A DNA stretch of 35,919 nucleotides from Escherichia coli (lineage in GTDB: Bacteria > Pseudomonadota > Gammaproteobacteria > Enterobacterales > Enterobacteriaceae), in NCBI RefSeq assembly GCF_003334305.1, contig NZ_QOWS01000032.1, one strand, 5' to 3'. Made by a program: the position numbers and the translations under genes. Under the pieces are notes generated by a model. That model did no database searches and was not told where the DNA came from. It was given only the letters and a program-made list of their open reading frames with translations. Of this stretch, positions 18,505-34,730 are shown piece by piece. Each line of letters opens with the position of its first letter. Within the stretch, counting starts at the first letter, position 1.

Positions 18505-18750
18505 ATGCGCATTACTATTTACACTCGTAACGATTGCGTTCAGTGCCACGCCACCAAACGGGCGATGGAAAACCGGGGCTTTGATTTTGAAATGATTAAT
18601 GTCGATCGCGTTCCTGAAGCGGCGGAAGCGCTGCGTGCTCAGGGCTTTCGTCAGTTGCCGGTAGTGATTGCTGGCGATCTTAGCTGGTCTGGTTTCCGCC
18701 CGGACATGATCAATCGTCTGCATCCAGCGCCACACGCGGCCAGTGCATGA
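18505..18750 (+). CDS. nrdH: Glutaredoxin-like protein NrdH, 81 aa
   Basis: Translation [26 protein letters not shown]..., redox motif CVQC. Confidence 0.95.
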
Positions 18751-19157
18751 GCCAGCTCGTCTACTTTTCCAGTAGCTCCGAAAATACGCAGCGTTTTATC
18801 GAACGTTTAGGACTGCCCGCGGTGCGCATCCCGCTCAATGAGCGGGAACGGATTCAGGTAGACGAGCCTTACATCCTGATCGTGCCCTCTTACGGCGGCG
18901 GCGGTACGGCTGGCGCGGTGCCACGACAGGTAATTCGCTTTTTAAACGACGAGCACAACCGGGCGTTGCTTCGCGGCGTTATTGCTTCGGGTAATCGCAA
19001 CTTTGGTGAGGCGTATGGCCGCGCCGGAGATGTGATTGCCCGGAAATGCGGCGTGCCGTGGCTGTACCGTTTTGAACTCATGGGTACGCAAAGCGATATC
19101 GAAAACGTTCGTAAAGGAGTAACCGAATTTTGGCAACGACAACCGCAGAATGCCTGA
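18747..19157 (+). CDS. nrdI: Flavodoxin-like protein NrdI, 136 aa
   Basis: Translation [21 protein letters not shown]... Start overlaps the nrdH stop (ATGA). Confidence 0.95.
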
Positions 19158-21274
19158 CGCAGGAAACGATGGATTACCACGCGCTGAATGCGATGCTTAA
19201 CCTCTACGATAGCGCAGGTCGCATTCAGTTCGATAAAGACCGCCAGGCCGTTGACGCCTTTATTGCGACGCATGTGCGTCCGAACAGTGTGACCTTCAGT
19301 AGCCAGCAGCAGCGCCTGAACTGGCTGGTCAACGAAGGTTACTATGATGAAAGCGTTCTTAATCGCTACTCTCGCGACTTTGTCATTACGCTGTTTGCCC
19401 ACGCACACACCAGCGGTTTTCGTTTCCAGACATTCCTCGGGGCATGGAAGTTTTACACCAGCTATACGTTGAAGACATTCGACGGTAAACGTTATCTGGA
19501 AGATTTTGCCGATCGAGTCACGATGGTGGCGCTGACGCTGGCACAAGGCGATGAGACGCTGGCGTTGCAACTGACCGATGAAATGCTGTCAGGACGCTTT
19601 CAGCCAGCCACGCCAACATTCCTCAACTGCGGTAAGCAGCAGCGCGGCGAACTGGTTTCCTGTTTTTTGCTGCGTATTGAAGACAATATGGAGTCGATTG
19701 GTCGGGCGGTAAATTCCGCACTGCAGCTGTCGAAACGCGGCGGCGGCGTAGCATTTTTGCTGTCGAATCTGCGAGAAGCGGGCGCGCCAATTAAACGTAT
19801 TGAAAATCAATCTTCTGGCGTAATTCCGGTGATGAAAATGCTGGAAGACGCATTTTCCTATGCCAACCAACTCGGCGCTCGTCAGGGGGCTGGTGCAGTC
19901 TATTTACATGCTCATCATCCCGATATTCTGCGTTTTCTCGACACGAAACGGGAAAATGCCGACGAAAAAATCCGCATTAAAACACTGTCGCTTGGCGTGG
20001 TGATCCCGGATATCACTTTCCATCTGGCAAAAGAGAATGCGCAGATGGCGCTGTTTTCGCCTTATGACGTAGAGCGAGTTTATGGCAAGCCGTTTGCCGA
20101 TGTGGCCATCAGCCAACACTATGACGAACTGGTTGCCGATGAACGCATCCGCAAAAAATACCTCAACGCCCGTGATTTCTTCCAGCGGCTGGCAGAAATC
20201 CAGTTTGAGTCCGGCTATCCCTACATCATGTATGAAGACACGGTAAACCGTGCTAACCCTGTCGCCGGGCGCATAAATATGAGTAATCTCTGCTCAGAAA
20301 TTTTGCAGGTTAACAGCGCCTCAGAGTATGACGAGAATCTCGACTATGCCCGTACAGGCCATGATATTTCCTGCAATTTAGGTTCGTTGAATATTGCCCA
20401 CACCATGGATTCCCCCAACTTTGCCCGCACGGTAGAGACTGCCGTACGCGGTTTAACGGCGGTGTCAGATATGAGTCATATCCGCAGCGTGCCGTCCATC
20501 GAAGCCGGAAATGCCGCCTCACACGCCATCGGGCTGGGGCAGATGAATTTACACGGTTATCTGGCGCGAGAAGGCATCGCTTATGGTTCGCCGGAAGCCC
20601 TGGATTTCACCAATCTCTATTTCTATACCATCACCTGGCACGCACTGCGTACCTCGATGTTGCTGGCGCGCGAACGCGGTGAAACCTTCGCCGGGTTCAA
20701 ACAGTCACGCTATGCCAGTGGTGAATATTTCAGCCAATATCTGCAAGGTAACTGGCAGCCGAAAACGGCGAAAGTTGGCGAACTGTTTGCCCGCAGCGGT
20801 ATTACGTTACCTACCCGTGAGATGTGGGCGCAACTGCGCGACGACGTGATGCGCTACGGCATATACAACCAGAATCTCCAGGCGGTGCCGCCAACCGGTT
20901 CTATCTCTTATATCAACCATGCTACGTCGAGTATTCATCCGATTGTGGCGAAAGTAGAGATACGCAAAGAGGGCAAAACAGGACGCGTTTACTACCCTGC
21001 CCCGTTTATGACTAACGAGAATCTGGCGCTGTATCAGGATGCTTACGAAATCGGCGCAGAAAAGATCATCGACACCTACGCGGAAGCGACTCGCCATGTC
21101 GATCAGGGTTTGTCGCTGACGCTGTTTTTCCCCGATACCGCCACCACTCGCGATATCAACAAAGCGCAGATTTACGCCTGGCGCAAAGGTATCAAAACGC
21201 TCTATTACATTCGCCTGCGTCAGATGGCGCTGGAAGGCACTGAAATTGAAGGCTGCGTCTCCTGTGCACTTTAA
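19130..21274 (+). CDS. nrdE: Class Ib ribonucleotide reductase alpha subunit, 714 aa
   Basis: Large ORF with RNR catalytic-core motifs (NLCSEI, C-terminal CVSCAL). Overlaps the nrdI 3' end by 28 nt. Confidence 0.95.
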
Positions 21275-21283
21275 GGAATATCT

Positions 21284-32664: not shown

Positions 32665-32672
32665 CTTTTCTG

Positions 32673-34229
32673 TCAGGCGTGTTTTTCCAGCCACACCGCA
32701 AACGGTTCGGTATCAGCGGTTTCCATTTCCTGCTGACGGCGTTCAGATGCCTCGCGCTCGGCTACAAAATCCTCTTCGCGCAGAATTTCCAGCGGCTCTT
32801 CACGCAGCAGATTACGGTAGGCTTCTGCAAACGCTTTGCCTGTTCCGCCAATACCAGTATCAATCATAGACCTTAAGATACGGGCAGAGAAAGTCAGATC
32901 GGGATTATCGAAGCAGGCAACCAGTTCATCACACACTTTCTGATACGCTTCGCCGCCGTTAATGCTATCCAGCGTTTGCGCGACGCGTTTCAGATCGCGG
33001 AACAGATCTTTACCCACCTGCAGTAACGGGAACTGCGCGGTTTCGCAGCCGATACCCAGCGTCAGGCCCGGTTTGCGACCTTCAAGGATCACCCGGTTCC
33101 AGTTAACGCGCGTACAGGCAAGTTCGCTACTGCTCATTTCCGGTGCATCAGCCAGCGCACACCAGACCATAAACAGGTCGAGGAATCGCACCTGCTGTTC
33201 ATCTACACCAATCGGCGAGAACGGGTTGATGTCCAGCGAACGCACTTCAATATATTCAATGCCGCCACGTAACAGCGCATCAGAAGGTGACTCGCCGCTG
33301 CGGGTAACGCGTTTTGGACGAATCGGCGCATACAGTTCGTTTTCAATCTGCAGCACGTTGCTATTGATTTGCAGCCTCTTACCGTCTTTCTCAATACCAA
33401 TCTTCGCGTACTCTTCCGATGGCGTTTTGATTGCCTGTTTAAGGCCCGCTACGTACTCGTAAAGATCGTTGAAGGTAATACCAAGATTGCTTTGCGATTT
33501 ATTGGTATAGCCGAGATCGCTCAAACGAAGAGAGGTCGCATACGGCAGGTAATACATACCGCACTCGGTTTTCTCAAACGGCAGCGACGTTGGTTTTCCT
33601 TGCAGGAAAGAAGAACAAATCGCCGGAGATGCACCAAACAGATAAGGAATGACCCAACCGAAACGATAGTAATTGCGGATAACGCGGAAATAGCCCGCAG
33701 AAATTTTCTCTTTGGCATCAGCGCCCGAGATATCACCGCACTTCGCTTGCCAGAATGCCATTGGCAAAGAGAAATTGTAGTGCACGCCGGAAATGGTTTG
33801 CATCAGCGCGCCGTAGCGATTTTTCAGCCCTTCACGATACAGCGTTTTAAAGCGTCCGGTGTTAGAAGTGCCGTACTGTGCCAGTTCGATGTCCTGACCT
33901 TCTGCGATGTAGCATGGCATACTTAACGGCCACATCCGCTCATCACCCATATTGCGCGCCGTATAACGATGCAGATCGCGCATAAAGGTCAGCATATGTT
34001 CAATATCACCATCCACTGGTGTAATGAATTCCAGCAATGCTTCCGCAAAATCGGTAGTAATCCATTTGTGCGTCAGTGCGGAACCTAATGCTTCAGGATG
34101 ACCTGTTGTTGCCAGTGTGCCATCAGCATTAACACGCAAAGTTTCGCGCTCCAGCCCACGCTGTATCCCCTTTAACGCCTGAGGATGTTTTTCCAGCCAG
34201 GCCAGCGCCTGTGATACGTCCGGGATCAA
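32673..34229 (-). CDS. gshA: Glutamate-cysteine ligase, 518 aa, with TTG start codon
   Basis: Translation [33 protein letters not shown]... recognized as GshA. The initiation codon at 34229..34227 is TTG, preceded by GGGAGG Shine-Dalgarno (reverse complement of 34235..34240). Confidence 0.95.
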
Positions 34230-34301
34230 ATTGACCTCCCGCCTGTCAAAATCGTTTTAATTAGCATAACTGTAATGGTGACCATATGTGCAGGCCTACA
34301 A

Positions 34302-34730
34302 TTAGTGCCACCACATCATGCCCTGAACGGTCGCTGCTGCAACTGCAACATAGCGTAACGCTTTACCAAGGCACAAAAAAAAGATTACTGGCCCCCAGGA
34401 GATGCGCATCCATCCCGCTAACAGACACAGTAAATCGCCAACCACGGGCATCCAGCTTAATAATAGCGTGACTGCACCATAGCGTTTCAGCCAGCCGGTA
34501 GCTTTCTCTTGCCAGCGCGATGTTTTACGCAATGGAAAGAAACGCCCAAGGATAACGTTAGTTAACCCTCCAAGGCTATTACCCATTGTTGCTGTTAAAA
34601 CTAAAACCCAGGGATAACTGATCCCGGAAAGCAACATTGCCACCAGCACGACTTCGGAGTTGCCGGGTAATAGTGTAGCGCTGAGAAAACTACTGGCAAA
34701 CAACGAGAAAAGCGATAACGCTTCACTCAC
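34302..34730 (-). CDS. yqaA: DedA/SNARE-associated-family inner membrane protein, 142 aa
   Basis: Hydrophobic ORF. Its start overlaps the yqaB stop by 4 nt, suggesting translational coupling. Confidence 0.85.
   Translation of the reverse strand: MSEALSLFSLFASSFLSATLLPGNSEVVLVAMLLSGISYPWVLVLTATMGNSLGGLTNVILGRFFPLRKTSRWQEKATGWLKRYGAVTLLLSWMPVVGDLLCLLAGWMRISWGPVIFFLCLGKALRYVAVAAATVQGMMWWH

Follow-up and report, generated by a model that had tools for sequence, protein, structure and literature searches.

The window, the whole stretch of 35,919 nucleotides that was analysed, is E. coli chromosome with 100% identity to strain A7, and its gene coordinates were taken from the RefSeq/PGAP annotation of the identical A7 record and shifted (window = L001 + 17499). 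On one strand it carries nrdH, nrdI, nrdE and nrdF in that order, which annotation and PDB matches identify as the class Ib ribonucleotide reductase operon nrdHIEF, and both TIGR00333 (NrdI) and TIGR04170 (NrdE) score above their cut-offs. An ATPase (ProV), a permease (ProW) and a binding protein (ProX) are encoded in the order of the proU (proVWX) glycine betaine/proline ABC transporter, an order shared with five other genera, and ProW scores 735.9 bits against NF008196, for which the cut-off is 439. A gene for a large AzlC-like subunit followed by one for a small AzlD-like subunit is annotated as YgaZ/YgaH, a two-component L-valine exporter of the AzlC/AzlD type, and yqaB and yqaA lie on the minus strand (Table 1).

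A first-pass annotation had listed overlaps of 4 nt at nrdH/nrdI, 28 nt at nrdI/nrdE, 8 nt at proV/proW, 11 nt at ygaZ/ygaH and 4 nt at yqaB/yqaA, in a span whose limits (18747-34730) are the starts of nrdI and yqaA, and had read them as signs of translational coupling that also supported the operon calls and the chosen start codons. All five junctions were reproduced, at these lengths, by the shifted A7 PGAP coordinates.

Table 1. Genes, overlaps and Shine-Dalgarno (SD) sequences at the five junctions
Feature	Coordinates	Strand	Remarks
nrdH CDS	18505..18750	+	81 aa; PGAP of identical strain; ORF list
nrdH/nrdI overlap ATGA (-4)	18747..18750	+	weak SD, structured start region
nrdI CDS	18747..19157	+	136 aa; NCBIfam TIGR00333 over residues 5-131
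nrdE SD AAGGAG	19114..19119	+	in NrdI codons R-K-G-V; 10 nt 5' of TTG; -8.2 kcal/mol
nrdI/nrdE overlap (28 nt)	19130..19157	+	TTG start, TGA stop
nrdE CDS	19130..21274	+	714 aa, TTG start; PGAP; Salmonella NrdE 1pem_A aligns from residue 1
Alternative in-frame ATG (NrdE Met14)	19169..19171	+	11 nt past nrdI stop; unconserved
proV CDS	22598..23800	+	400 aa; PGAP
proW SD GAGGGGG	23780..23786	+	in proV codons R-E-G; -12.6 kcal/mol
proV/proW overlap ATGGCTGA (-8)	23793..23800	+	
proW CDS	23793..24857	+	354 aa; NCBIfam NF008196 equivalog over residues 2-354
ygaZ CDS	27407..28144	+	245 aa; PGAP
ygaH SD AAGGAG	28122..28127	+	inside ygaZ; -7.7 kcal/mol
ygaZ/ygaH overlap ATGAGCTATGA (-11)	28134..28144	+	
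ygaH CDS	28134..28469	+	111 aa; NCBIfam NF007711 equivalog over residues 1-111
yqaA CDS	34302..34730	-	142 aa, GTG start; PGAP
yqaB/yqaA overlap GTGA (-4)	34727..34730	-	
yqaB CDS	34727..35293	-	188 aa; PGAP

Conservation of the overlaps and of the annotated starts

Of the neighbouring genes in the window, approximately 23 pairs are co-directional, and five of these overlap. Overlap frequency averaged over prokaryotic groups is ~15% (PMC6728339), and against this norm the window displayed no enrichment of overlaps (P(>=5) = 0.26). Genome-wide, -4 and -8 are enriched spacing classes, -4 being the most frequent (PMC12548453). The comparison with orthologous operons that had been named as a check bore out all five lengths, the K. 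pneumoniae overlaps, all taken from one Klebsiella chromosome, being likewise 4, 28, 8, 11 and 4 nt. The five overlaps are real, conserved in relatives and ordinary for E. coli operons.

The operon calls were upheld as well. In each overlapping pair the downstream gene begins before the upstream one has ended, so that one transcript has to carry both, and a gene that starts within the previous one leaves no room for a terminator; a scan of the junctions found nothing terminator-like in the coding orientation, and nrdHIEF, proVWX and ygaZH are established units. The scan did return a hairpin at 34724-34709 on the minus strand, just past the yqaA start, which was dismissed by eye as weak (3 G-C pairs), no matching stem being seen in Salmonella or Citrobacter. 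As to the chosen starts, all five are the most upstream possible in their ORFs and agree with a mechanical ORF list. Because the starts are simply those of the longest ORFs, the overlaps are circular as evidence for them; it is conservation across species that supports the annotated starts. Both operon structure and start codons are confirmed here for well-studied E. coli genes, a result of little import beyond quality control.

The nrdH/nrdI spacing of -4 was also found in nine other Enterobacteriaceae loci and in Klebsiella. This overlap is mostly limited to the Enterobacteriaceae, with a few sporadic cases outside, and other taxa have a gap of +1 to about +200 nt. In NrdI structures solved for several species, the first residue lies 2-4 residues before the LVYFSS strand. 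At proV/proW the -8 spacing was found in every other enterobacterial genus sampled, including Klebsiella, Citrobacter, Enterobacter, RIT691, Mangrovibacter (ATGAGTAA) and Photorhabdus (TTGAGTAA), with stop codons that vary and a start codon that differs in Photorhabdus, and in five other genera the proW SD reads GAGGGGG, GGGAGGGAG or AAGGAGA. Both the E. coli junction and those of Mangrovibacter and Photorhabdus fit the -8 class (NTGNNTGA), the third enriched spacing class of prokaryotic genomes (PMC12548453). The ygaZ/ygaH spacing is -11 in Klebsiella, where the ygaZH stretch has 73.5% nucleotide identity to the window, and -4 (ATGA) in Photorhabdus. GTGA at yqaB/yqaA was likewise present in each further enterobacterial genus that was sampled, namely in Klebsiella and, as three more genera, in S. 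bongori, C. freundii and Leclercia. The YqaA length of 142 aa is kept in almost all of 120 close homologues, among the matches listed; GTG is the sole upstream in-frame start of yqaA, and the downstream candidates vary by species.

The nrdE start within nrdI

The nrdE TTG straddles two conserved NrdI codons, taking its first T from the end of the Phe codon and its TG from the adjacent Trp codon (TT[T TG]G), and the distance from GGAG to TTG is constant across gammaproteobacteria. Of 96 loci from Proteobacteria and Actinobacteria, 76 have an in-frame NTG at this place in NrdI (x-Trp). In high-GC loci, the Phe codon at the nrdE start is TTT in 31 of 45 cases against an expected 4.3, other Phe-Trp pairs of the same loci have TTT in 0 of 70, and TTT elsewhere accounts for ~6% of Phe codons in high-GC Actinobacteria and Proteobacteria, related genomes being counted as independent in these cross-species tests. 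The length of the overlap itself ranges from -7 to -46 across taxa, with a NrdI tail of 0-14 residues past Phe-Trp.

On balance, we lean towards reading the nrdE start as an ancient dual-coding module, in which the codons for a conserved C-terminal NrdI helix, G-(V/L)-x-x-F-W, would also contain the SD and the start, and selection would hold the Phe at TTT in high-GC Actinobacteria and Proteobacteria. Read in this manner, nrdE would have its rare TTG because Phe-Trp (TTT TGG) offers only TTG at that place, and a weak start codon inside nrdI might fix a low ratio of NrdE to NrdI synthesis. No paper describing such a dual-coding start of nrdE was found in the searchable literature, whose reach stops short of older subscription journals. 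The junction would provide a clean and testable example of dual coding that fixes a rare start codon and overrides codon bias across phyla.

Ribosome-binding sites and translational coupling

Start-region opening energies were obtained from 160-nt folds in isolation, for which the intragenic background was 14.1 +/- 3.9 kcal/mol. The SDs of nrdI and yqaA are weak (-1.7 and -3.4 kcal/mol) compared with those of proW, ygaH and nrdE (Table 1), and their start regions are structured, with opening energies of 17.6 kcal/mol (83rd percentile of the background) and 20.6 kcal/mol (95th percentile), as against 6.0 for proW, 10.1 for ygaH and 7.1 for nrdE. By this measure proW and nrdE have unusually open start regions, and ygaH a moderately open one. 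The nrdE start (5.2-10.7 kcal/mol) was more open than that of nrdI (11.1-21.7) in 10 of 10 other Enterobacteriaceae tested, and opening energy differs by species, being 10.9 for yqaA in S. bongori and 10.6-10.9 for proW in Klebsiella and Enterobacter. A weak SD is reportedly no bar to initiation in E. coli, this being the stated theme of one study.

The explanation that we favour, with a probability of about 0.75, is that the window holds five stable, ordinary overlaps in nrdHIEF, proVWX, ygaZH and yqaBA, that the annotated starts are real, and that the junctions belong to two mechanistic classes. In one of these (nrdH to nrdI, ATGA, and yqaB to yqaA, GTGA), start and stop codons overlap, the SD is near-absent and the predicted start region is at least as structured as coding RNA, and translation of the downstream gene would most likely need ribosomes completing the upstream gene, through termination-reinitiation, RNA unfolding or both. 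In the other (proV to proW at -8, ygaZ to ygaH at -11 and nrdI to nrdE at -28), a strong SD lies within the last codons of the upstream gene and the sites would probably recruit ribosomes alone. Because of these strong SDs and open start regions (moderately open for ygaH), proW, nrdE and ygaH could initiate independently; upstream translation may assist, but the overlap would not demand it, least of all at -28. Evolution would appear to fix the downstream start and its SD, while the position of the upstream stop drifts and sets the length of the overlap.

Coupling is most efficient at spacings of -4 to +3 nt (PMC12548453); nrdH/nrdI and yqaB/yqaA fall inside this range, proV/proW and ygaZ/ygaH outside it, and nrdI/nrdE far outside. 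The two -4 junctions have the same start/stop layout as the NTGA pairs for which termination-reinitiation has been described (Huber et al. 2019, PMC6728339; Brown and Wade 2025, PMC12548453), and are likewise co-directional and intra-operonic. They differ from the pairs of Huber et al. in their weak SDs: SD dependence varied there from pair to pair, and removal of the SD cut reinitiation in four of the five E. coli pairs tested (PMC6728339). The proV/proW junction differs from its -8 class in that its internal SD is very strong and its start region open, and it need not depend on reinitiation. Coupling, as proposed in the first-pass annotation for all five junctions, is plausible from sequence at nrdH/nrdI and yqaB/yqaA, where the SD is weak and the start region structured, and fits poorly with the strong SDs at -8, -11 and -28. 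TrpE/trpD and trpB/trpA are classic coupled pairs of E. coli, in which coupling has been shown genetically. Like the present pairs, they combine short stop/start overlaps with products that are subunits of one enzyme or pathway, whereas for the present pairs we infer coupling only. An overlap by itself is no proof of translational coupling, nor should the one term be taken automatically for the other, since the mechanism seems to differ between the -4 junctions and the longer, SD-bearing ones at -8, -11 and -28. The literature searched yielded no experiment on these five pairs, the full texts no relevant statement on coupling or TTG for nrdI/nrdE and proV/proW, and nrdE, nrdI, proW, ygaH and yqaA are all absent from the tetracycline profiling supplements (PMC4909307).

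Alternative explanations of the overlaps

It is distinctly unlikely that all five overlaps reflect uniform coupling, in which the ribosome ending the upstream gene restarts on the downstream one. All five pairs are indeed co-directional, lie in operons and overlap, and several encode one complex (ProV/ProW, YgaZ/YgaH), which is reportedly frequent among coupled pairs (PMC10666635). However, coupling is reported to decay as the overlap lengthens and to be nil at -25 nt (Tian and Salis, as relayed in PMC12548453), and nrdI/nrdE stands at -28; the E. coli genes bioBF overlap and yet are capable of uncoupled, de novo initiation (PMC6728339); and the strong SDs at the three longer overlaps, two of them with unusually open start regions, have the look of independent starts. 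Highly improbable is the suggestion that one or more overlaps are artefacts of longest-ORF annotation with a true start downstream, for which nrdE would be the likeliest case, its ATG at 19169 leaving an 11-nt gap. All five starts being the most upstream possible, TTG and GTG being rare starts, the TIGR04170 profile opening at D15 directly after Met14, and an AGGA lying 4 nt 5' of the ATG (-4.3 kcal/mol) would all agree with such an artefact. Yet at Met14 an ATG is confined to E. coli and E. albertii, with GTG in Klebsiella and Enterobacter Ag1, and the codon is no start codon in most Enterobacterales, Citrobacter, Superficieibacter and Pantoea among them, and a start at Met14 was rejected because the codon is unconserved in relatives. 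In these bacteria the TTG is kept together with its SD, and it is the sole in-frame start 5' of the conserved DYHALNAM motif in Citrobacter, Superficieibacter, Pantoea, Mangrovibacter and others. The retention of TTT against codon bias across phyla also speaks against an artefact, as do the downstream candidates for yqaA, proW and ygaH, which are unconserved or missing in relatives, and the NCBIfam equivalogs, which span ProW from residue 2 and YgaH from residue 1. In E. coli itself, partial initiation at ATG 19169 may occur.

We also consider it unlikely that the overlaps are neutral by-products of drift of the upstream stop, whereby loss of a stop extends the gene to the next one with no regulatory role. 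Overlap length does shift among taxa while the downstream start stays (nrdI/nrdE, and ygaZ/ygaH at -11 or -4), the nrdH/nrdI overlap is mostly limited to one family, and overlaps are not enriched in the window. The stop-loss and extension model of Kingsford, Delcher and Salzberg (2007), as it is cited in PMC4161906, has the same fixed downstream start and moving upstream stop as are seen at the NrdI tail and at ygaZ, but in that form is silent on the nrdE start, where TTT, and with it TTG, is retained in the face of codon bias. Against neutrality, the exact lengths are the same in E. coli and Klebsiella at five of five junctions, and proV/proW retains its -8 as far out as Photorhabdus though the sequence has changed. 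Furthermore, the median nrdI SD is -2.2 where nrdH and nrdI overlap, -4.7 at gaps of 0-15 nt and -7.0 at gaps of >15 nt (P = 3e-5, with related genomes treated as independent), and this weaker SD at overlapping loci suggests a functional trade-off.

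Overlapping junctions and their orthologues

The RefSeq annotation of the strain A7 chromosome (NZ_CP028767.1), which is 100% identical to the window over its full length, was moved to window coordinates for the junction check. All five overlaps described in the first-pass annotation were present at the lengths it gave, and its operon calls were correct, nrdHIEF, proU (proVWX) and ygaZH being textbook units borne out by annotation and family models. Genes at the remaining junctions of these operons are separated by gaps (positive spacings: nrdE/nrdF +9, proW/proX +57, emrA/emrB +16).

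Overlapping junctions, with proxies for initiation at the downstream start (negative spacing, overlap in nt; SD, Shine-Dalgarno; energies in kcal/mol; percentile, position of the opening energy within the intragenic background)
Junction	Overlap	Position	Strand	Downstream start	Spacing	SD energy	Opening energy	Percentile
nrdH/nrdI	ATGA	18747-18750	+	nrdI	-4	-1.7	17.6	83rd
nrdI/nrdE	28 nt, TTG start	19130-19157	+	nrdE	-28	-8.2	7.1	2.5th
proV/proW	ATGGCTGA	23793-23800	+	proW	-8	-12.6	6.0	1st
ygaZ/ygaH	ATGAGCTATGA	28134-28144	+	ygaH	-11	-7.7	10.1	15th
yqaB/yqaA	GTGA	34727-34730	-	yqaA	-4	-3.4	20.6	95th

The window contains about 23 pairs of adjacent co-directional genes, and 5 of these overlap, showing no enrichment over the rate of ~15% given as typical of prokaryotic genomes in PMC6728339 (P(>=5 of 23) = 0.26). 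A spacing of -4 is by far the commonest, -1 and -8 being the next enriched classes (PMC12548453). Since there is no excess over chance, and -4 and -8 are among the enriched classes, the five junctions are typical. Short overlaps between co-directional genes of prokaryotic operons are well described, and these five belong among them; the observation of overlap is correct. Each downstream start is the most upstream one possible in its ORF, and the five starts therefore match a mechanical ORF list. Unlike for these five, the longest-ORF rule would be wrong for proV, where the longest ORF runs from 22397 (467 aa) and the annotated start is at 22598 (400 aa).

The comparison with orthologous operons proposed in the first-pass annotation was carried out on a K. 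pneumoniae chromosome syntenic with the window (CP125156.1, mis-filed as a plasmid in PLSDB), in which each of the five overlaps has the same length as in the window (4, 28, 8, 11 and 4 nt) and whose ygaZH stretch has 73.5% nucleotide identity to the window. Complete K. pneumoniae and E. coli chromosomes of 4.8-5.4 Mb filed there as plasmids (also NZ_OL790696.1, NZ_CP134663.1 and NZ_CP141089.1) are a trap for plasmid statistics. A wider scan, in which one genome per species was matched against a degenerate form of the NrdE motif, yielded 120 loci from Enterobacterales, Halomonadaceae, Alphaproteobacteria and Actinobacteria, five enterobacterial loci of which reached proU. In these five (Citrobacter, Enterobacter, strain RIT691, Mangrovibacter (ATGAGTAA) and Photorhabdus (TTGAGTAA)) proV/proW overlaps by 8 nt and its internal SD is strong; Mangrovibacter and Photorhabdus have no other candidate start 5' of the conserved ProW region. 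The ygaZ/ygaH spacing is -4 (ATGA) in Photorhabdus. Salmonella bongori, Citrobacter freundii and Leclercia share the GTGA overlap of yqaB/yqaA; yqaA has no upstream in-frame start other than this GTG, and the nearest downstream candidates vary by species. The nrdH/nrdI spacing is -4 in all sampled Enterobacteriaceae; it lies between +4 and +10 in the remaining Enterobacterales and reaches about +200 in Actinobacteria. The overlaps had been taken as support for the start codons; the start calls are correct, but it is these cross-species data, not the overlaps themselves, that support them.

Initiation-site proxies and translational coupling

Two in-silico proxies, anti-SD duplex energy and the free-energy cost of opening positions -18 to +12 within 160 nt of context, were calculated for 25 annotated starts in the window, with 400 random intragenic positions as background for the latter (mean 14.1, standard deviation 3.9 kcal/mol). 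The two starts at -4, nrdI and yqaA, had the weakest SDs of the five and ranked highest of all 25 in opening energy. In 10/10 other Enterobacteriaceae tested, opening required 5.2-10.7 kcal/mol at nrdE versus 11.1-21.7 kcal/mol at nrdI; values varied more between species at yqaA (10.9-21.9) and proW (8.0-10.9 kcal/mol). Across taxa, the nrdI SD was weakest where nrdH and nrdI overlap (median -2.2 kcal/mol, n=16), with medians of -4.7 at gaps of 0-15 nt (n=29) and -7.0 at larger gaps (n=54; overlap versus larger gaps, Mann-Whitney P = 3e-5, related genomes being treated as independent).

Coupling is described in PMC12548453 as best at -4 to +3 nt, weaker with longer overlap and absent at -25. 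The overlapping pair bioBF is capable of de novo initiation, and the SD contribution differs from pair to pair (PMC6728339). The proxies and these published data, taken together, divide the junctions in two: nrdI and yqaA are probably dependent on translation of nrdH and yqaB, respectively, while proW, ygaH and especially nrdE would be SD-driven starts that lie inside the upstream gene by happenstance. Coupling at all five junctions, as first proposed, was thus over-generalised, being plausible at the two -4 junctions, with strong SDs standing against it at -8, -11 and -28. A literature search, older primary proU and nrdEF literature excepted, found no experiments on these five pairs.

The nrdE start within nrdI

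The nrdE start is the most doubtful of the five, being a TTG within a 28-nt overlap, with an in-frame ATG (Met14) 13 codons downstream at 19169. A start at Met14 was set aside, the equivalent codon being CTG, CCG or GCG in Citrobacter, Superficieibacter, Pantoea, Mangrovibacter, Acerihabitans and others, in which TTG is the only in-frame nrdE start 5' of the conserved motif. At the level of sequence, this cross-species comparison settles the annotated TTG as the predicted start; minor initiation at 19169 may occur in E. coli itself. The NCBIfam NrdE profile begins at D15, and residues 1-14 are therefore a variable N-terminal extension. The window's second TTG start, that of gshA (34227-34229, minus strand), has a GGGAGG SD that is very strong (-11.0 kcal/mol).

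The nrdE TTG consists of the last base of a NrdI Phe codon and the first two of a Trp codon (TT[T TG]G, 19127-19132), and its SD, AAGGAG, is built from NrdI codons for R-K-G-V. An in-frame open NTG occupies this position in 76 of 96 loci with a G-x-x-x-x-W motif at the NrdI end; of the 76, TTG in Phe-Trp accounts for 65 and GTG in Trp-Trp or Arg-Trp for 8. The overlap length (-7 to -46) depends on how many residues NrdI has after Phe-Trp (0 to about 14), but the reading frames keep a constant relation. In high-GC loci (at least 60% G+C, n=45), the start-site Phe codon is TTT in 31, with 4.3 expected from other Phe codons of the same genes (TTT 45/721), and TTT is used in 0 of 70 Phe-Trp pairs encoded by long high-GC3 ORFs at these loci. 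These counts treat related genomes as independent and correspond to about 18 high-GC genera with TTT versus about 6 with TTC. Where the codon is TTC (Mycobacterium, Paracoccus, some Rhodococcus), a different start with an SD lies nearby. This phylum-spanning dual coding, with TTT kept against codon bias, is the only item of possible specialist interest, a neat testable detail and not a new kind of system.

Gene order and neighbouring features

The A7 annotation gives the plus-strand order nrdH-nrdI-nrdE-nrdF, proV-proW-proX, an MFS transporter gene, ygaZ-ygaH and emrR-emrA-emrB, followed on the minus strand by luxS, gshA, yqaA, yqaB and a tRNA-Arg cluster. The transporter gene (394 aa, 26099-27283, plus strand) is intact, its equivalent ygaY being a pseudogene in K-12; K. 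pneumoniae has no gene at this position. Directly 3' of the proX stop lies a match to the REP-like naRNA4 (Rfam, nucleoid-associated RNA; 25917-25994, plus strand, 65.2 bits). The luxS-gshA intergenic region carries the sRNA MicA (RF00078, 32592-32663, plus strand, 83.9 bits), including its own terminator hairpin (32642-32659). The tandem tRNA-Arg cluster at the window end (35574-35919, minus strand) has one complete and one cut copy, and four copies in the strain record. Upstream, ygaM (DUF883, 17929-18257, plus strand) carries a frameshift in this strain's annotation and is listed as a pseudogene, and the convergent csiR (plus) and kbp (minus) abut at 14120/14121 with 0 intergenic bases. A degraded island (1-6434) adjoining a tRNA-Ile gene (3546-3621) contains the end of an IS3 transposase gene, a truncated YpjA/EhaD autotransporter gene, a recombinase fragment and frameshifted DUF5507 and alpha-amylase-family genes.
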